A stretch of 64,000 nt of DNA, taken from assembly GCA_964508155.1 (NCBI GenBank), contig CAZDRE010000001.1, positions 69,174 to 133,173 on the forward strand, given 5' to 3'. The translations under genes were made by a program, and so were the position numbers. Positions 5,663 through 62,322 of the stretch are shown one piece after another (within the stretch, counting starts at the first letter, position 1; each line of letters begins with the position of its first letter). The notes below the pieces were generated by a model. That model was given only the letters and a program-made list of their open reading frames with translations, did not search any database and had not been told where the DNA came from. The stretch is from an uncultured Candidatus Bathyarchaeia archaeon (GTDB taxonomy: Archaea > Thermoproteota > Bathyarchaeia > Bathyarchaeales > DTEX01).

Positions 5663-8293
5663 GTGGTTATGAGCGGATCATCTTTTCGGAGCCCTCTCGG
5701 AGATGTTGCCAAATACTTTCTTTATACGGGAAATCGATTAAGGGAGATATCTTTTCCCATAGGTGGTATAGGGACTGGCTGCATAGGCCTCGCTGGAAAT
5801 GGAAGGCTTATCGACTGGGAGATCTTTAATAGGCCGAATAAGGGGAGTGTAAATGGTCTTTCACATTTTGCCGTTAAGGCTGAGGCAAAAGGAGCAGTTC
5901 TGGATGCAAGAGTCTTAACTGGCGATTTGCCCCCTCCATATTCCGGCGAAGTTCTTGGACGGGGCTCCGAGTCATTTGGCTTCGGGCCTCCTAGAGGCTA
6001 CTTGGCTGGTTTACCCCACTTTAGGGAGGTAGAGTTCGAGGGAACCTATCCGATTGCAACTTTAAGGTTTAGGGATAGTAGATTCCCTGGAAAGGTTAAG
6101 ATGACAGCATTTAACCCGTACATTCCACTTAACGATTTAGATTCAAGCATACCGTCAGCCTTCTTTGAGATTGAGGTTCAAAACACATCAGAGGAGACTA
6201 TTACATACACAATTTGCCTTTCGGTTCAAAATCCTCTGCCTGCCGGAACCACTGTGAACACGTATGGGAAGCGTGAGGGAACCCAATTCATAAGGATGAC
6301 ATCGAATAGACTCGAGGAGGATGATGTGAAATTCGGGGAGATAACAATAGCCACCGACTCAGAGAATGTCAGCTACCAAGAATATTGGTTTAGAGGGGAA
6401 ATGTTCGATTCCATGCATGTCTATTGGAGAGACTTCACATCACCTGGCAGACTAAAGAATCGCTGTTATCCTAAGCCTATGAGGGGAATACAGGATCATT
6501 CCTCCCTAGCAGCCCACATTGAGATGAAGCCGGGAGAGAAAGGAAGAGCCAGATTCGTTATATGCTGGAGATTTCCAAATTGCTACAATTACTGGAACCC
6601 TGAAGTTAGGGGACTTGAGAAACGCAGAACATGGAAGAACTATTATGCAACCGTCTTCGGTAACTCGGTTGAGACAGCCGTTTACTGCCTCAAAAATTGG
6701 GATAGACTATATGGGGAGACGAGGAAGTTCAGAGACAGCCTGTTCTCCTCAACTTTACCTCCATTCGTGATCGATGCCATCTCAGCGAATATCTCGATTC
6801 TTAAGACCCCCACGGTCCTCCGGCTTGAAGACGGATCCCTCTATGGATTTGAGGGGTGCCGTGCAAGATCGGGATGCTGCGAAGGAAGCTGCATGCATGT
6901 ATGGAGTTATGCTTATGCTCCCGCCTTTCTATTTCCAAAGCTCGACCGCTCAATGTGGGATCTACACTACAAGTACGATCAGCTGGAGGATGGAAGGATC
7001 ATCTTCCGCCTCCAGCTGCCGCTTGGCAGGGGACAAAGGAGATCTTCACGAGCCGCAGTGGATGGACAGTTCGGCAGCGTGATAAGAGCCTACCTTTACT
7101 GGAAGCTCACTGGAGATGATGATTGGCTTAGATCGAATTGGGATTCCATAAAGAGATCTATCAAGTACGCCTGGGCCGAGACGAATGAGGATAAGTGGGA
7201 TTCAAATAAGGACGGTGTCTTGGAGGGGAGGCAGCATCACACATGCGATAGGGAGCTCTTCGGTCCTAACTCTTGGTTGAATGGCTTCTACCTAGCAGCC
7301 TTAAAAGCCGGGGCTGAGATGGCTGAGTATCTAGAAGAAGCTAAGAAGGCCAAAGAGTACCTGAACTTATTCAGTAGGGGCAAGAGGTGGGTTGACAAGA
7401 ACCTCTTTAACGGCGAATATTATCATCAACTCATCAATCTACGGAGTAGATCGATCCTAGAAAGGTTCCAGCACAAAGACCCTAATGTCATAGACGCCTA
7501 CTGGGATGATGAGCATGGAGAGATAAAGTATCAAATAGGAGAAGGCTGCGGAGTCGATCAGGTTCTGGCGCAATGGCACGCTAACATCTGCAGTTTAGGC
7601 GAGATCTTCAATAAAAAACACATTAAGAAAGCGCTAAAATCAATATACAAATACAACTTTAAGAGCATGAGGGAATTCGAGAATCCATGCCGTGTCTTCA
7701 GCCTAAATGATGAGAGAGGAGTTGTCATATGCGAATGGCCAAAAGGTAAATATAAGCCAGTCATCCCCATTCTGTACGCTGAGGAGACATGGCCAGGCTG
7801 CGAATATGCTATTGCAAGCTTGATGATACAGGAGGGACTCATAGAAGAAGGGTTAGAGATCGTTAAGGCCGTCCGTGACAGATTCGACGGAGAGAAGAGG
7901 AATCCATGGAATGAATTTGAATGTGGAAGCAACTATGCCCGTTCAATGTCCTCTTACGCGCTTCTCCTAGCACTCAGCGGATTAAAATTCGACATGGTTA
8001 ACCTCAGAATAGAGATAGATCCTCCGAGATTGATCAATGGTCATTTCAGATGCTTCTGGTGTCTAGGAACGGGCTGGGGAAACTTTGAGATAAATCGGAG
8101 CTCCATTACAATCCACGTTCAATATGGAAGATTAAAGATTAAGATTTTAAGCCTGCCCTTCCTAGAGGGCAGGGAGATTAAAGAAGTGCTTGTTGGAAGG
8201 AGAAGAGTCGATTTTGAGAGATGCAATAACGAAATAATATTTGCCAAGCCCGTCTCGATAGAAAGTGGCTCAAAACTCACCGTTCAATTCTAA
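5663..8293 (+). CDS. GH116-type beta-glucosidase / glucosylceramidase-like glycoside hydrolase
   Basis: 876 aa. The N-terminal FPIGGIGTGCIGLAGNGRLIDWEIFNRPNK motif and a long C-terminal alpha/alpha-barrel-like region are typical of the GBA2/GH116 family. Confidence 0.85.
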   Translation: MVMSGSSFRSPLGDVAKYFLYTGNRLREISFPIGGIGTGCIGLAGNGRLIDWEIFNRPNKGSVNGLSHFAVKAEAKGAVLDARVLTGDLPPPYSGEVLGRGSESFGFGPPRGYLAGLPHFREVEFEGTYPIATLRFRDSRFPGKVKMTAFNPYIPLNDLDSSIPSAFFEIEVQNTSEETITYTICLSVQNPLPAGTTVNTYGKREGTQFIRMTSNRLEEDDVKFGEITIATDSENVSYQEYWFRGEMFDSMHVYWRDFTSPGRLKNRCYPKPMRGIQDHSSLAAHIEMKPGEKGRARFVICWRFPNCYNYWNPEVRGLEKRRTWKNYYATVFGNSVETAVYCLKNWDRLYGETRKFRDSLFSSTLPPFVIDAISANISILKTPTVLRLEDGSLYGFEGCRARSGCCEGSCMHVWSYAYAPAFLFPKLDRSMWDLHYKYDQLEDGRIIFRLQLPLGRGQRRSSRAAVDGQFGSVIRAYLYWKLTGDDDWLRSNWDSIKRSIKYAWAETNEDKWDSNKDGVLEGRQHHTCDRELFGPNSWLNGFYLAALKAGAEMAEYLEEAKKAKEYLNLFSRGKRWVDKNLFNGEYYHQLINLRSRSILERFQHKDPNVIDAYWDDEHGEIKYQIGEGCGVDQVLAQWHANICSLGEIFNKKHIKKALKSIYKYNFKSMREFENPCRVFSLNDERGVVICEWPKGKYKPVIPILYAEETWPGCEYAIASLMIQEGLIEEGLEIVKAVRDRFDGEKRNPWNEFECGSNYARSMSSYALLLALSGLKFDMVNLRIEIDPPRLINGHFRCFWCLGTGWGNFEINRSSITIHVQYGRLKIKILSLPFLEGREIKEVLVGRRRVDFERCNNEIIFAKPVSIESGSKLTVQF

Positions 8294-13976: not shown

Positions 13977-14068
13977 TGGAGCCCCGGGCGGGATTTGAAC
14001 CCGCGACCTACGGCTCTCCATCCGCGTTGGATACAAGGCCGTTGCTCTAACCACTGAGCTACCGGGGC
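13977..14068 (-). tRNA. tRNA-Thr(UGU) with 16-nt intron at canonical 37/38 position; CCA encoded
   Basis: The reverse strand reads GCCCCGG TA GCTC AGTGGTTA GAGC A ACGGC CTTGTA[TCCAACGCGGATGGAG]A GCCGT AGGTC GCGGG TTCAAAT CCCGC CCGGGGC T CCA. This gives a full cloverleaf. Confidence 0.85.
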
Positions 14069-57141: not shown

Positions 57142-59574
57142 TCATATTCCCTTTCTCGAGAGCATCCTATCCAAGATCGGCTTTAGCTTCGCATTTTCAG
57201 CCTTGATCCTCTCCTCTCCTATTTCCTCTAGCTTCTCAGCCATCTCCCGGATTACATTTGCGAATTTAACTCCCTCCGCAGCTGAGATGTATTCAACCCT
57301 GAAGCGTTCAGGCGTTAATCCGAGCTTCTGAAGCATCTTAGCCAATGCCTTCATCCTCTCAGTCATCTTCCAATTCCCATCTATGTAGTGGCAGTCGTAT
57401 GGTAGGTGGCAAGCACCTATGAGAACCATGCCCGCGCCCCTCCTGAACGCCTCGAGGACGAAGTCTCTGTCAACTCTGCCTGAGCACATAACCCTGATTA
57501 TCCTAAGGTTCGGCGGGTATTCGTGGCGGCTCGTTCCGGCCAGATCGGCGCCAGCATAGGAGCACCAGTTACAGCAGAAGCCCAGGATCTTCCGTTCCGG
57601 ATTCTCCTCTAGGGCGGCTCTGATCTGAGCGAATATCTGAGCGTCCGTGAAGTGCATCTGCGTTATTGCATCAGCTGGGCATTCAGCCACGCATGTTCCA
57701 CATCCATGGCACATTGCGGCTCTAACCTCTGCGGGCTTCCCCTCCTCTACCACGATCGCTCCATATGGGCATTTGCTCGCGCATATGCCGCACTTAACCC
57801 TAACATTCCTGCATTTCTCTGGATCCACAACGGCGATTATTGGCTCTATCTTAACTGATGGCTTAGATAGGATCGTTGCGGCCCTAGCAGCGGCTCCGCT
57901 TCCCTGAGATACGCTGTATGGTATGTCCTTCGGCCCCTGACATGCGCCAGCCAAGAATATGCCATCGACGGGCGTATCTATGGGCTTTAGTTTCGGATGG
58001 CTCTCCATGAAGAACCCATCGGATCCACGTGTGATGTTTAGGAGCCTTGCGACCTCATCTGCTCCCCTAGCTGGGATGGCCGCGGTTGCTAGGACGACCA
58101 TCTCGGCCTCTAGTTCAATTGGCTCCCCGAGAAGCGTGTCTTCGGCGTGTATTATCAGGTTCTTCTCCGGAGTCTCAGTTATCTTCGAGACCCTTCCCCT
58201 TATGAAGTTGACTCCCATCTCCCTTGCCCTAGCATAGAACTCCTCATATCCCTTGAAGTGGCTTCTTATATCCATGTAGAAGACGTAAACTTCAACATCA
58301 TCCCCGTAATGCTCCTTAAGTTGAATAGCATGCTTCAGGGTATACATGCAGCAGAATCCGGAGCAGTATGGATACTTGTTTATGTCTCTTGAGCCGACGC
58401 ATTGGATGAATGCTACAACCCTCGGTCTCTTGCCGTCTGAGGCTCTGATGACATGGCCTCCAGTAGGCCCAGCGGCTAGGATAAGCCTCTCAAACTCCAA
58501 GCTCGTTATGACATTACTGTATTTTCCATATCCGTAGATGTTCCCCTCCTCCGGCAGGTATATATCATAGCCAGTCGCAACTATTATCGCGCCGACCTCA
58601 AGTTCGATCTCCTCCGGCTGCTGACTGAAGTCTATTGCCTGACGCTCTCCACATGCCTCCACACACTTGTAGCATTCGATGCAGTAATCCCTATTTATCG
58701 TGTATACGAGTGGAACTGCCTGATCGAATGGGACTGATATTGCCTTCCTAACACCCAAGTTCATGTCCCATTCATTCGGGTATTCTATTGGGCATACGTC
58801 TCTGCATTCTCCGCATCCAGTGCAGTTCTCCTCAATGACATACCTAGGATTCTTCCTTATCCTAACCTTGAAGTTCCCAATGTACCCCTCAACGCTTAAT
58901 AGGTCAGCATACGCTATTATCTCAATGTTAGGATGCCTCGCGACATCGACCATCTTAGGCCCCTCAATACAGATGGAGCAGTCGAGCGTTGGGAACGTCT
59001 TGTCCAGCTGAGCCATATGCCCGCCTATGCTCTCCTTCTTCTCGACCAAGTATACCTTGAACCCCATCTCTGCAAGGTCTAGGGCAGCGCTTATTCCGGC
59101 TATTCCGCCTCCCAGGACTAGGGCCTTATTCGTAACTGGAACCTCTATGGGCTCAAGCGGCCTTAGAAGCCTCGCCTTCGCAACGGCCATCTTAACGAGG
59201 TCCTTGGCCTTCTCAGTCGCCTCTTTAGGCCTGCTCGGATGACACCAGGAGCAGTGCTCCCTGATATTCGCCATCTCAAGCAGATAAGGGTTTAATCCGG
59301 CCTCCGAGACTGTCCGACGGAAAGTGAATTCATGCATACGCGGAGAGCACGCCGCTATAACCACCCGATTCAACTTATGCTCCTTTATCGCCTTCCTTAT
59401 CTCCTCCTGTCCGGGATCCGAGCATGTATACCTATTATGGGTTGCGAATACGACGTTTGGGAGGGTCTTGGCGTATTCGGTTACCTCCTCGACATCTACT
59501 ACTCCAGCTATGTTCAGCCCGCAATGGCAGACGAAGACGCCGATCCTAACATCTTCAGGTTCGGATTTCTTCAT
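57142..59574 (-). CDS. hdrA: Heterodisulfide reductase subunit A fused to MvhD-like domain
   Basis: 810 aa. Has IGVFVCHCG at the N-terminus, FAD fold GGGIAGISAA and several 4Fe-4S motifs. The C-terminal ~140 aa (FCCNWCSYAGADLAG..RVMCSGRVD..GACHLPYDCHY) match the MvhD/FlpD type. Confidence 0.9.
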   Translation of the reverse strand: MKKSEPEDVRIGVFVCHCGLNIAGVVDVEEVTEYAKTLPNVVFATHNRYTCSDPGQEEIRKAIKEHKLNRVVIAACSPRMHEFTFRRTVSEAGLNPYLLEMANIREHCSWCHPSRPKEATEKAKDLVKMAVAKARLLRPLEPIEVPVTNKALVLGGGIAGISAALDLAEMGFKVYLVEKKESIGGHMAQLDKTFPTLDCSICIEGPKMVDVARHPNIEIIAYADLLSVEGYIGNFKVRIRKNPRYVIEENCTGCGECRDVCPIEYPNEWDMNLGVRKAISVPFDQAVPLVYTINRDYCIECYKCVEACGERQAIDFSQQPEEIELEVGAIIVATGYDIYLPEEGNIYGYGKYSNVITSLEFERLILAAGPTGGHVIRASDGKRPRVVAFIQCVGSRDINKYPYCSGFCCMYTLKHAIQLKEHYGDDVEVYVFYMDIRSHFKGYEEFYARAREMGVNFIRGRVSKITETPEKNLIIHAEDTLLGEPIELEAEMVVLATAAIPARGADEVARLLNITRGSDGFFMESHPKLKPIDTPVDGIFLAGACQGPKDIPYSVSQGSGAAARAATILSKPSVKIEPIIAVVDPEKCRNVRVKCGICASKCPYGAIVVEEGKPAEVRAAMCHGCGTCVAECPADAITQMHFTDAQIFAQIRAALEENPERKILGFCCNWCSYAGADLAGTSRHEYPPNLRIIRVMCSGRVDRDFVLEAFRRGAGMVLIGACHLPYDCHYIDGNWKMTERMKALAKMLQKLGLTPERFRVEYISAAEGVKFANVIREMAEKLEEIGEERIKAENAKLKPILDRMLSRKGI

Positions 59575-59587
59575 TCAAAAATCCCTC

Positions 59588-60526
59588 CTAGCTGAGTCTT
59601 CTCCTAACTGATTCAAGCGCCCTCCCCATCCTCCTACTCACCAACTCCTTAATTAAGCCCCTAGTCGAGGTTAACCTTTCGAGGGCTGAATTCCAAGCTC
59701 CGGACTGAACGGGAGCGTGGGCGATAACCGTCCTCTCCAAAACCAATGCATCTTCAACTGGGCAGACTATCCTGCATGCGCCGCAGTATATGCAGAAGTA
59801 ATCGTTAACCTCAACCCTACCATCATCGGAGACCTCGAGGACCCCAGGTATCGGACAGACATCAACGCAGTCCCTACATCCATCCGGGCACTTACTCCAG
59901 TCTATGCGGATCCTACCTGAGAATATCTTCTTGACTGTTATTGCATTCTCTGGGCATTTAGCCTCGCATAATCTACATCCAGGGCAATGATCCAGATCCA
60001 CGTCTATTCGAACCGAACCGCCGTTCCATTCGACCTTGATGAGGTCGAATGGGCATGCCTCTTGGCATTCAATGCAGTTCCTTGGACACTTAGATGAGTC
60101 TATCTCAACTCCACGCATCAATTCTGGGAAGCTTCCCTTCTCTATGACGGGGGATTTCTCCTCCCCATCAATGATCAGCTTCAAGGCTCCTACGGGGCAT
60201 ATGGTGCTACATATCCCGCAGAATGAGCATTTCTTCTCATCGATGCTGATCGATGCGTGGCTTAACCTTTCGCCCTCAACCCTTGTAGGCTTTATTATCT
60301 CTATTGCCTCCTTCGGGCATGCGGCCTTGCAGATCTCGCATCCAATACATCTACCCTTCTCGAGAATCAGAAGGTATCTTCGAGTGTAGAGTGTCCGGCT
60401 CACCTTTAGGTGCTCATCAGTCTCAGTTCGGAGTAGCTTCATCACCATACATTTATCTCTCCAAGCCGGATTTAGATAAATGAGCTCAAGCCATACATGA
60501 CGGTTTTTAAAGTATTCATTCATCAT
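59588..60526 (-). CDS. Polyferredoxin-like protein (about six 4Fe-4S motifs)
   Basis: 312 aa with repeated CxxCxxCxxxCP motifs (CIGCEICKAACP, CSFCGICSTICP, CPGCRLCEAKCP, CIYCGACRIVCP and others). Confidence 0.8.
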   Translation of the reverse strand: MMNEYFKNRHVWLELIYLNPAWRDKCMVMKLLRTETDEHLKVSRTLYTRRYLLILEKGRCIGCEICKAACPKEAIEIIKPTRVEGERLSHASISIDEKKCSFCGICSTICPVGALKLIIDGEEKSPVIEKGSFPELMRGVEIDSSKCPRNCIECQEACPFDLIKVEWNGGSVRIDVDLDHCPGCRLCEAKCPENAITVKKIFSGRIRIDWSKCPDGCRDCVDVCPIPGVLEVSDDGRVEVNDYFCIYCGACRIVCPVEDALVLERTVIAHAPVQSGAWNSALERLTSTRGLIKELVSRRMGRALESVRRRLS

Positions 60527-60695
60527 ACAGACTCATATCTTTTTTGGAAGACTCCAAAACAGCCAAAACTCGATTGGGATTCAAATCGCCAATTTATGAA
60601 CTTTATAAGGGAGGTTTTCATGGTGCCATGAAGAGATCGTCAGAATCAGAGATTTGGATTTGTGGTGGGGCCGGTCGGATTTGAACCGACGACCT

Positions 60696-60726
60696 CTACC
60701 CGATACGGGGCTTAAACCCCGCATCT
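60696..60726 (-). other. tRNA-Trp intron 3 (31 nt, 43/44 junction)
   Basis: Perfect central helix ACCC/GGGT with bulges GT|A and AG|A. The inner hairpin GATGCGGGG/CCCCGTATC is 9 bp. Confidence 0.75.
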
Positions 60727-60732
60727 ACGGGT

Positions 60733-60792
60733 TTCTTCAAGCTCCAGAACCTCATCATTCCCATGATGGGTCTGCAAACCCGTATCTGCATT
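60733..60792 (-). other. tRNA-Trp intron 2 (60 nt, canonical 37/38)
   Basis: The anticodon stem ACGGG/CCCGT serves as the outer helix. The central helix CTCC/GAAG has 3 of 4 pairs. The bulges are AG|A and AA|A. Confidence 0.7.
60737..60791 (-). ncRNA. Box C/D-like guide element embedded in tRNA-Trp intron 2
   Basis: Perfect AUGAUGA at 60752-60758. CAGA at 60771-60774 and UUGA at 60737-60740 are degenerate D'/D boxes. AUGCAGA at 60785-60791 is a weak C box. The 9-nt guides at 60776-60784 and 60741-60749 are perfectly complementary to the tRNA exons. Confidence 0.4.
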
Positions 60793-60812
60793 CTGGAGCC
60801 CGTCGTCATGCC

Positions 60813-60844
60813 GTTCCAGCAGGCCGCCGCATGGGCAAGCCGTT
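60813..60844 (-). other. tRNA-Trp intron 1 (32 nt, D-loop, after position 16)
   Basis: Helix TCTA/TGGA (one G.U) is flanked by bulges GC|A and AC|G. Removal yields D-loop AGCGGCA. Confidence 0.7.
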
Positions 60845-60886
60845 GCTAGACTACGGCCCCCAAAGAATTGTTTAATCCAGCAGCTC

Positions 60887-60897
60887 AGATATATAAG
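60887..60897 (-). promoter_or_regulatory. TATA-like box for tRNA-Trp
   Basis: The reverse strand reads CTTATATATCT, centred about 32 nt upstream of tRNA position 1 (60860). Confidence 0.35.
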
Positions 60898-60928
60898 TTA
60901 CGTTTCCCACGGAGACCTGAAACGAAAG

Positions 60929-60938
60929 ATTAAAAAAG
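60929..60938 (+). promoter_or_regulatory. TATA-like box for 5S rRNA
   Basis: ATTAAAAAAG, centred about 28 nt upstream of the 5S 5' end. Confidence 0.4.
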
Positions 60939-60960
60939 AGCGGATTCCAAATTGTGTTTC

Positions 60961-61081
60961 GGCTGCCGGCCATAGGGCGCGGGAACCACCCGAACCCATT
61001 CCGAACTCGGAAGTTAAACCGCGCTCCGTCCCTAGCGGTAGTGCAGTCTTCGGCTGCGCGAAGCTAGGGAAGCCGGCAGCC
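60961..61081 (+). rRNA. rrf: 5S ribosomal RNA
   Basis: GGCTGCCGGCCATAGGGCGCGGGAACCACCCGAACCCATTCCGAACTCGGAAGTTAAACCGCGC...GAAGCCGGCAGCC. Helix I pairs GGCTGCCGGC with GCCGGCAGCC. The loop C/E signatures CCGAAC and GAAGTTAA are present. Confidence 0.9.
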
Positions 61082-61083
61082 AC

Positions 61084-62322
61084 CTATTCTATGATCGGCT
61101 TGAACCTTCCGGTTCTCATGAATTCCTCATGGTCGTATATCCTTACGCCCCTTACAACCCTCGTTATGACTCCCTTCTCGCTTGGATTATCAGGCTTCAA
61201 GCCTAGATTTAACGATTTAAATAGAGCTAGCATCTGAGCGACTATAACGTCGACTATTGGCCTACACTTATCCGGAATGCTGAGTTTCCCTTCAGGGTCA
61301 AGCTCTATTACGTGATCAACGTATCTGCTGATCTCCTCGGTCGATCTATTACAGACCGCTATCTTCACAAGCCCTAAACGCTTAAGATGCAGATCCCTCA
61401 TGAGGTCAAGTTCATACCTCCGAGTGAACGGATCATTCGAGACGTAGAATACAAGTATTGATTTGTCGTTCACAGCGACTTCAGGTCCATGCCTCAGCCC
61501 CATATACGAGTCCGACTTGCATATGACCCTGCCAGCCGTTAACTCCTGAAGTTTTAGGCTTGACTCGACTGCGCATCCATAAAGCGAGCCGCTTCCAAGG
61601 AAAAATGCCCTATCAAAGTTCAACTCTGAGACTTCCCTGAGTAGGGCTGAGTATCTCATGATAAGGCCTTCTGCAGCCTCGGATAGGCTCCTAATTATGC
61701 CCTCGTACTCCTCTGGTTCTCTGATATACGCCAAGAACTGCGCCGTTGAGGTCATGGTAGTGAAGGATGAAGTCATGGCTAAACCCCTATCATTCGCCTC
61801 ATCTGGACATAATAGGACAAGGGAATTTTCAAGGCCACTGGCCATCTGTGCAAGCTTCCCATGCCTATTACACGAGACGATTATGTGATTCACTCCCTTA
61901 AGGAATCTATTCGCCAACAGTATTGCCCCAATGCTTTCCGGACTGTTTCCCGATCTAGAGAAAGAGATCATAGTAGTATCGAATTCGCTTAATAAGATCG
62001 ATCTCCAATCCGTGATTATCTCAGTTGATCCCCTAGTCTCAGCTATTCTCCTCCACTTACTTCTTAGGAGGCCCTCAACTGAGAGGCCTATGAATTTCGA
62101 TGTTCCAGCGCCTGAAAGTATTACTCTGACAGGGCCTTTCTCAAGGATCCTCTCCTCAATGAAACCTCTGATCTCATCCTCCATCTTCTTCAGCATCTCG
62201 AAGTTTTTCATCCATACCTTGGGCTGATGGAATATCTCCTTAGGCGTGAATTCTATCCCCAAGGATCTGCGGGTCTCCAGTGGCAGCTTAACCAATTCTT
62301 TCAGGGCTGACGAGGCGCTCAC
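61084..62322 (-). CDS. Double-SIS-domain sugar-phosphate isomerase/deaminase (AgaS/FrlB-like)
   Basis: 412 aa. The N-terminus TPKEIFHQPKVW resembles AgaS. It is followed by GAGTSKFIG and a second SIS repeat GSGSLYG. Confidence 0.75.
   Translation of the reverse strand: MSASSALKELVKLPLETRRSLGIEFTPKEIFHQPKVWMKNFEMLKKMEDEIRGFIEERILEKGPVRVILSGAGTSKFIGLSVEGLLRSKWRRIAETRGSTEIITDWRSILLSEFDTTMISFSRSGNSPESIGAILLANRFLKGVNHIIVSCNRHGKLAQMASGLENSLVLLCPDEANDRGLAMTSSFTTMTSTAQFLAYIREPEEYEGIIRSLSEAAEGLIMRYSALLREVSELNFDRAFFLGSGSLYGCAVESSLKLQELTAGRVICKSDSYMGLRHGPEVAVNDKSILVFYVSNDPFTRRYELDLMRDLHLKRLGLVKIAVCNRSTEEISRYVDHVIELDPEGKLSIPDKCRPIVDVIVAQMLALFKSLNLGLKPDNPSEKGVITRVVRGVRIYDHEEFMRTGRFKPIIE

Follow-up and report, generated by a model that had tools for sequence, protein, structure and literature searches.

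The window, that is, the whole stretch of 64,000 nucleotides of an uncultured Candidatus Bathyarchaeia archaeon analysed here, carries an interrupted gene for tRNA-Trp near its end. Taken as a whole, the evidence is best explained by a functional tRNA-Trp(CCA) gene with three introns from a Bathyarchaeia-type archaeon, located at 60860-60663 on the minus strand, and we consider this reading highly probable. Between these positions the minus strand reads GGGGCCGTAGTCTAGC...CGGCCCCACCA, and the gene is divided as follows (exon 1 and intron 1 are given in the register that we prefer, and a hyphen within a bulge marks the splice site).

60663-60860, minus strand: whole tRNA-Trp(CCA) gene, 198 nt, four exons and three introns, with the 3' CCA encoded.
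60844-60860, minus strand: exon 1, GGGGCCGTAGTCTAGCA, tRNA nucleotides 1-17 (ended at 60845 in the initial annotation).
60814-60843, minus strand: intron 1, in the D-loop (~17/17a), 30 nt; central helix CTAG/CTGG, bulges CA-A and AA-C.
60793-60813, minus strand: exon 2, CGGCATGACGACGGGCTCCAG, with the remaining D arm, G26, the 5' strand of the anticodon stem and the loop up to G37.
60733-60792, minus strand: intron 2, at the canonical position 37/38, 60 nt; the outer helix is the anticodon stem, the central helix CTCC/GAAG has 3/4 pairs, bulges AG-A and AA-A.
60727-60732, minus strand: exon 3, ACCCGT, 6 nt, tRNA positions 38-43.
60696-60726, minus strand: intron 3, at 43/44, 31 nt; central helix ACCC/GGGT with 4/4 pairs, bulges GT-A and AG-A, and a 10-bp hairpin abutting the bulge.
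60663-60695, minus strand: exon 4, with the variable loop AGGTC, the T arm, the 3' acceptor strand, A73 and CCA.

The initial annotation had described the locus as a single tRNA-Trp gene, the introns of which lie in the D-loop, at 37/38 and at 43/44. This description is backed by splicing in silico, by introns at matching sites in some 95 orthologues, by the covariation of the intron helices and by a conserved upstream TATA element. Excision of 60844-60813, 60792-60733 and 60726-60696, the introns as first delimited, leaves 75 nt that ARAGORN calls as tRNA-Trp(CCA) with a regular cloverleaf. Contrary to what had been stated, these removals are not the only ones that give a cloverleaf, since excising 60843-60814 in place of the first of them also yields a sequence that ARAGORN calls as tRNA-Trp. 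The conserved features of a tRNA are present in the spliced sequence, namely A14, G18, G19, A21, the T-loop TTCAAAT, A73, the pair G1-C72 and one anticodon. Moreover, at all three introns the junctions follow the second base of 3-nt bulges that lie on either side of a 4-bp helix, in the strict or relaxed form of the bulge-helix-bulge (BHB) motif. The helix counts given before were right in each case (4/4 for intron 3; TCTA/TGGA, 4/4 with one G.U, for intron 1 as first delimited; 3/4 for intron 2). A fourth intron at 28/29, as described below for relatives, can be ruled out for the window, where GACGACGGGCTCCAG is uninterrupted. The mature product is more likely 77 nt long, the encoded CCA included; it would be 75 nt if the earlier boundaries of intron 1 are right.

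The expectation that default tRNA finders overlook such a gene was borne out, as ARAGORN and the Rfam tRNA model are both silent on its unspliced form. ARAGORN reports three tRNAs for the window, and an Rfam scan at gathering thresholds returned the same three together with a 5S rRNA at 60962-61081. A permissive Rfam scan gave a weak match to the tmRNA model, which ends exactly at 60663 and 60860 and is carried by the acceptor and T arms. When introns are allowed, ARAGORN reads the unspliced gene as tRNA-Arg(GCG) with an intron of 124 nt; this spurious call was rejected and supports the gene ends alone. A scan for a T arm combined with an acceptor stem picked out the three known tRNAs of the window and the gene at 60663-60860, four candidates in all. 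A second tRNA-Trp was not found within the window by ARAGORN, by Rfam or by the latter scan. The 3' CCA is encoded by all four tRNA genes of the window (T arms at 14004, 36151, 43446 and 60690).

Relatives were collected with two sequence patterns, and the counts from both scans are samples. The pattern for the 3' exon gave at least 119 loci in a genome collection, and a pattern that spans exon 1 and the first bases of the D-loop intron gave at least 120 further loci in a metagenome collection; the latter pattern fixed GC-N-ACG at the 5' splice site, so that the invariance of those bases is not evidence. Among the matches listed, nearly all genome loci with a CCA anticodon and the same exons are labelled Bathyarchaeota or Bathyarchaeia. 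The exceptions are a locus labelled Nitrososphaerota (L060) and one labelled as a Limnocylindrales bacterium (L045), the bacterial label of which is probably due to mis-binning. The initial annotation had connected the architecture to Thermoproteales-like archaea. This lineage did not hold: no Thermoproteales label occurs among the matches listed with this architecture, and the relatives are metagenome-assembled genomes (MAGs) of Bathyarchaeota or Bathyarchaeia. Neighbouring genes are shared as well, as the hdrA neighbour is common to L107 and the window and a divergent 5S rRNA gene is common to L116, L043 and the window. On the basis of these labels and shared neighbours the window lineage is Bathyarchaeia-like and not Thermoproteales.

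The number of introns varies within the family. The orthologues in Bathyarchaeia genomes have introns at 37/38 and 43/44, and many of them do not have the one in the D-loop; in L116 the third intron lies at 28/29 and that in the D-loop is missing. Among the metagenome loci, 79 genes could be parsed completely, and for 79/79 ARAGORN calls the in-silico spliced sequence as tRNA-Trp. The three introns of the window are found in 37 of these (window included), 40 have four introns, with about 29 nt more at 28/29, and the remaining 2 have introns in the D-loop, at 28/29 and at 37/38. The four-intron genes (L120, L121, L129, L179 and 36 other metagenome loci) are 218-229 nt long in total, with introns of approximately 31 nt in the D-loop, 29 nt at 28/29, 60 nt at 37/38 and 28 nt at 43/44. 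Their 28/29 intron has a central helix with 4/4 pairs and a hairpin that covaries, with 2-6 pair types per pair. The loci L004, L144 and L214 contain 'NN' at the anticodon loop or at an intron end and were left out of the parsed genes. The first of these, from 'Candidatus Bathyarchaeota archaeon BA2' (LIHK01000055), is probably also a four-intron gene that is partly masked by the NN.

BA2 and about 95 other orthologues have the same exons as the window, and also share the D-loop intron at the same site (AGC, then NACG... after the junction), the 43/44 intron, a canonical intron that bears guide sequences and, in many cases, the divergent pairing with a 5S rRNA gene. They differ in that BA2 and 40 metagenome genes have the extra intron at 28/29, whereas the window lineage (with L224 and L236) shows a more degenerate D-loop motif and the box variants CAGA and AUGAUGA. 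Thus, the window gene belongs to a Bathyarchaeia-wide tRNA-Trp family with two to four protein-spliced introns.

The structure of the gene is not a product of chance, as the exons are conserved and the intron helices covary. The mean identity to the window over 64 distinct orthologues is 96% for the exons, 61% for the D-loop intron, 77% for the 37/38 intron and 59% for the 43/44 intron. Between the window and L224, 6.3 kb of flanking sequence shows 92.8% identity, yet just 2/198 gene positions differ; L236 differs at 1/198. Both L224 and L236 derive from near-identical populations. For the D-loop intron, 55 distinct orthologues were compared: the 4-bp central helix is paired in 100% of them, and 7/9 intron-helix pairs show compensatory double changes. 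In this intron 92.7% of the cells are paired versus 27-46% with slid partners, and the covariation score was reached by 0/500 shuffles. For the 43/44 intron the pairs were counted from the anchored intron ends, because indels in the loop misaligned the stems; in 52 distinct orthologues pairs 1-7 are paired in 46-52/52, with 2-6 pair types each. RNAalifold on a plain MAFFT alignment had given just three invariant C-G pairs for this intron, as the loop indels break the register of the stem. The central helix of intron 2 has 3/4 or 4/4 pairs in 16/16 tabulated orthologues. In addition, the unspliced RNA of the window folds at -99.4 kcal/mol (z = -5.9 versus shuffles), and its minimum free energy (MFE) fold, computed without constraints, contains the acceptor stem, the T arm and the motif of intron 3, which is a near-perfect BHB.

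Intron 2 also contains elements that resemble those of a C/D-box guide RNA and that the initial annotation had not recognized. In the order of transcription they are:

60775-60783, minus strand: first guide, ACGGGTTTG, complementary to exon 3 (A38-U43) and flanking bases.
60771-60774, minus strand: D'-type box CAGA; CTGA in 45/71 and CGGA in 24/71 orthologues.
60760-60770, minus strand: hairpin from the D'-type to the C'-type box (stem I of a kink-turn, or K-turn), CCCATCATGGG, as given by RNAalifold.
60752-60758, minus strand: C'-type box ATGATGA; ATGAAGA or ATGACGA in orthologues.
60740-60751, minus strand: second guide, GGTTCTGGAGCT, complementary to G31-G37 and the first two intron bases.
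60736-60739, minus strand: degenerate terminal D-type box TGAA; GTGA in 33/71 orthologues; it overlaps the strand GAAG of the BHB central helix (60735-60738).

These elements are strongly conserved. In 71 distinct orthologue introns the first guide, A[C/T]GGGTTTG, is near-invariant and is followed by CNGA, the variant CAGA being confined to the window lineage. The stretch TTCTGGAGC is invariant in the same 71 introns and is followed, one base on, by a weak NNGA. Between the two, [A/G]ATGA[A/C/T]GA is kept, and the linker has CC...GG at its ends in nearly all introns; the pair of boxes is present in 71/71, with CUGA in 45. In the window, AUGAUGA (60758-60752) and CAGA (60774-60771) are joined by the covarying hairpin, as in a K-turn. 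RNAalifold on an alignment of 15 sequences found 3/4 pairs of this hairpin to be compensatory. On the same alignment it also predicted that G31-G37, together with the first three bases of the intron, pair with the second conserved stretch over 10 bp; in this helix each of the three pairs that involve those intron bases is compensatory.

The closest described counterpart is the sR3 guide (RF01133). Its consensus reads C - aCGGGUCUg - D' - C' - UUGGAGCa - D, with the same two guides as the window intron, in the same order. With this model the tRNA-Trp intron of L096 reaches 61.9 bits against a threshold of 41. In L096 (347-401, minus strand), as in L038, L047 and L087 (all from uncultured archaea), the canonical intron is the sole one, and its C, D', C' and D boxes are of textbook form. 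This classical single-intron form appears to be the source from which intron 2 of the window derives. To judge from its sequence, intron 2 is a derived relative of the sR3-type C/D-box guide, in which the internal D'/C' pair is now a predicted stem-closed K-turn.

In C/D-box guides the modified nucleotide lies opposite the fifth base upstream of box D or D'. C39 occupies this position in the pairing with ACGGGUUUG, which is followed by CAGA. C34 occupies it in the pairing with GGUUCUGGAGCU, followed by UGAA, provided that the four nucleotides 12 nt past the C' box are taken as the box. Intron 2 would thus probably direct the 2'-O-methylation of C39 and C34, before or after its excision. In Haloferax and Pyrococcus the tRNA-Trp intron guides the formation of Cm34 and Um39 (PMC7714728, PMC7994747).

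Several observations weigh against this assignment, and some of them favour the view that the complementarities of intron 2 just shape the precursor for splicing or stability, with no methylation guide involved. No C/D model of Rfam matches above threshold; sR3 gave no match to the window intron at E<=10 (60400-61200), and other C/D families reached a weak 12-18 bits. A second, terminal pair of boxes was not found, as there is no C box in the 5' lead AAUGCAGAU of the window or in those of relatives (AACAGAA and others). The 3' box reads TGAA, GTGA, AGGA or GTCA across the introns and is degenerate in the window, so that a single K-turn is possible. The D' box of the window is CAGA and not CUGA, and the assignment of C34 hinges on which four nucleotides count as the box. 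Furthermore, the helix between guide and anticodon region extends into the intron and covaries with it, like a purely structural helix. The stretch AAUGCAGAU was considered as a functional terminal C box and rejected: it matches at 5/7 positions, its first GA is without its A, the spacing is 10 and not 12 nt, and it is not conserved in relatives. Nevertheless, AUGAnGA and CNGA beside a covarying stem closed by CC/GG constitute the signature of a K-turn, and they are kept in every one of the 71 introns. Both complementary stretches are those of sR3, in the same order, and the fifth-base rule leads to C39 and C34, the very positions guided in Haloferax and Pyrococcus (PMC7714728, PMC7994747). 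Moreover, a long duplex in which the 5' splice site is buried impedes the formation of the BHB and does not aid it. We therefore regard a purely structural role as unlikely, although it retains some weight.

The boundaries of intron 1 need separate consideration. The initial annotation placed this intron in the D-loop, which is correct, and delimited it as 60844-60813 (32 nt), with the cut between tRNA nucleotides 16 and 17, a 75-nt tRNA and a 7-nt D-loop AGCGGCA. The palindromic core TCTAGA/TCTGGA allows two registers that are shifted by one base, each with a 4-bp helix and 3-nt bulges, and on structure alone they are inseparable. In the 32-nt register the helix TCTA/TGGA is kept with 4/4 pairs and 3-nt bulges in 55/55 orthologues, and the 75-nt product is a valid tRNA-Trp for ARAGORN with A14, G18, G19 and A21 in place. 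On the other hand, its first intron-helix pair is A.C in 55/55, and G15 stays unpaired although its invariant partner C is available, whereas in the 30-nt register G15 pairs with this C and the first pair, which abuts the bulge, is C-G in 54/55. The ends differ too, as the intron is A...AA in the 30-nt register and ends in AC in the 32-nt register. With the 30-nt form all three introns begin with A and end in AA or AG. A constrained fold is slightly more stable for the 30-nt register (-91.5 versus -89.6 kcal/mol). Finally, the 77-nt product, which has the D-loop AGCACGGCA, is colinear without gaps with six orthologues that have no D-loop intron (70-72/77 identical). The 75-nt product is 2 nt shorter than every such orthologue, all of which have a 9-nt D-loop (AGNCAGGNA). 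Because of the helix that abuts the bulge, the AA end, the stability and the gapless colinearity with the intronless orthologues, we prefer 60843-60814 with good, though not full, confidence, and take the boundaries first proposed to be rather improbable.

With either choice, intron 1 is not a textbook motif, and here the reading of the locus as a functional gene meets its main difficulties. The 5' site in the D-loop of the window is not a clean 3-nt bulge and the motif is relaxed; in the register homologous to that of the orthologues 8/9 positions are still paired. The MFE fold favours a continuous 7-bp helix that is better by about 8 kcal/mol than either BHB register of this intron. Likewise, imposing the BHB of intron 2 costs about 15.6 kcal/mol relative to the MFE fold, because the duplex between guide and anticodon region must open. 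The relaxed motif of intron 1 is the weakest point of the gene model.

This same relaxed motif could be taken to mean that the locus is a decaying or non-functional copy with insertions, and that a separate intact tRNA-Trp gene serves the cell; moreover, at least one contig of a related MAG (L055) has several tRNA-Trp copies and fragments. Such a copy is very improbable in view of the 96% conservation of the exons with every cloverleaf feature intact; likewise, some 95 independent contigs retain the same interrupted architecture, and their intron helices have undergone compensatory changes. In addition, the comparison of the window with L224 shows the gene to be far better conserved than its flanks, the promoter is conserved, and most related loci show no uninterrupted copy.

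The arrangement in L055 (Bathyarchaeia SPRUCE 151) is worth describing. It comprises three tRNA-Trp pieces at ~889, ~1920-2110 and ~7540-7735, namely a complete gene, in which the D-loop intron is located elsewhere and that at 43/44 is missing, a 5' fragment (nt 1-28) and a copy from which the first 14 nt are missing. The overlap between the pieces is AGGCAGGTATGACGAC, and L093 and L101 likewise are without a nearby 5' exon. It looks like an element that has integrated into a tRNA gene, or like a split gene.

G+C-rich RNA genes are often free of stop codons by chance. That the plus-strand open reading frame (ORF) at 60654-60875 (73 aa, TTG start) encodes a protein has a practically negligible probability: it is open in the window and some antisense frame is open in 30/68 distinct orthologues, but it lies wholly antisense to a conserved structured RNA gene, all three antisense frames are closed in the other 38/68, and the frame that is open varies between 0 and 2 because intron lengths vary, in agreement with its earlier dismissal as an artefact.

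The upstream region contains one further element that is common to the family:

60889-60896, minus strand: putative promoter element of TATA type, TTATATAT, located 29-36 nt upstream of tRNA nucleotide 1.

In 115/129 distinct upstream regions of orthologues an A/T-rich hexamer begins at a position from -45 to -24, in most cases from -36 to -31, and it often reads AACGTATATAT. Transcription from this element, about 30 nt upstream, would yield a precursor of about 200 nt, the ends of which would then be trimmed. The archaeal splicing endonuclease would cut the three motifs and a ligase would join the exons. The motif of intron 3 would already be present in the primary transcript, intron 1 (60843-60814) would be cut through the central helix CTAG/CTGG, and intron 2 through the anticodon stem together with CTCC/GAAG. 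Exon 3 (ACCCGU) has a central position in this scheme, as it has three exclusive partners: the strand ACGGG of the anticodon stem, GGGU of intron 3 (in the MFE state) and the first guide ACGGGUUUG. Because these pairings are mutually exclusive, processing would have to be stepwise and not simultaneous. Most likely, intron 3 would be removed first, with no dependence between it and intron 1; guide-directed methylation would follow, and intron 2 would be removed last. The tRNA introns of Thermoproteales likewise need iterative removal (tRNAscan-SE 2.0 paper, PMC8450103).

With respect to the genomic context, the 5S rRNA gene at 60962-61081 (plus strand) and the tRNA-Trp gene at 60663-60860 (minus strand) form a divergent pair, 101 bp apart. 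The same pairing is found in L116, L043, L224 and a dozen other related loci, and appears to be a conserved arrangement in the lineage. Directly downstream of the tRNA gene and on the same strand (57142-60526, minus) lie an ORF of 312 aa that resembles a poly-ferredoxin and an HdrA-like ORF of 810 aa (57142-59574). The hdrA neighbour is syntenic in Bathyarchaeota L107, with 66% nucleotide identity over 2.4 kb. Elsewhere in the window, the 'tRNA-Gly(TCC)' called by ARAGORN at 13977-14068 (minus strand) is a miscall with a poor structure, as its homologues in L027 and L044 are tRNA-Thr (CGT and TGT). The locus reads as a tRNA-Thr(TGT) gene with a 16-nt intron at 37/38 and a weak splice motif.

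The gene can be compared to two known systems. The multi-intron tRNA genes of Thermoproteales, as summarized for Pyrobaculum, Thermofilum and Caldivirga (Sugahara et al. 2008, as relayed in PMC4033280 and PMC8450103), have, according to these accounts, relaxed motifs as found here. Their introns are so close together that one must leave before the next motif forms, and standard finders overlook them. Unlike in those genes, the relatives here are Bathyarchaeia MAGs that reach four introns, and the positions (~17/17a, 37/38 and 43/44, with 28/29 in relatives) are inherited stably throughout the family, which does not resemble recent transposition.

The second system is the C/D guide within pre-tRNA-Trp (Haloferax volcanii, 'sR50' of Pyrococcus, sR3 of RF01133). 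As in the window, such guides occupy the canonical intron, the first guide is directed at 38-43 (target 39) and the second at 31-37 (target 34), and guide pairing competes with the BHB fold. In sequence, the guides of the window intron come close to the sR3 consensus. This intron differs from sR3 in that it has no terminal C box and a degenerate terminal D box, the consensus boxes being those of the internal D'/C' pair. This internal pair is closed by a hairpin and would form a K-turn and not a kink-loop (K-loop). Furthermore, position 39 is C and not U, and the intron is not scored by RF01133.

Multi-intron tRNA genes in archaea and intron-borne C/D guides in tRNA-Trp were thus already known. 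In the literature consulted, the maximum stated per archaeal tRNA gene is three introns (PMC4033280, PMC8450103). In the literature that we searched, no relevant report was found on tRNA introns in Bathyarchaeota or on four introns in an archaeal tRNA. What goes beyond the earlier finding are the four-intron relatives and the rearranged sR3 guide with its presumed single K-turn. These elements can be joined in one interpretation, in which an sR3-type guide without a terminal K-turn operates with one internal K-turn, the number of introns is a record, and methylation and splicing are coupled via the pairings of exon 3 and the anticodon loop. It would imply a family with stably accumulated introns in excess of any described tRNA gene, with four introns in about half of the recovered environmental copies that have the D-loop intron, and three in the window. 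We hold this joint interpretation tentatively, and with more doubt than belief.

Bathyarchaeia are abundant archaea of sediments and are known almost solely from MAGs. When a gene of this type is overlooked by standard finders, the genome seems to be without tRNA-Trp and the antisense ORF may be called in its place; estimates of completeness and tRNA inventories of Bathyarchaeia therefore depend on the recognition of such genes. Moreover, the heavy fragmentation of tRNA genes reaches beyond the Thermoproteales. One and the same gene occurs with two, three or four introns, a series that provides natural material for the study of intron gain and loss and also informs on the substrate range of the splicing endonuclease. 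Finally, the gene offers a case in which the order of methylation, as directed by the putative guide RNA, versus splicing can be considered on one small precursor.

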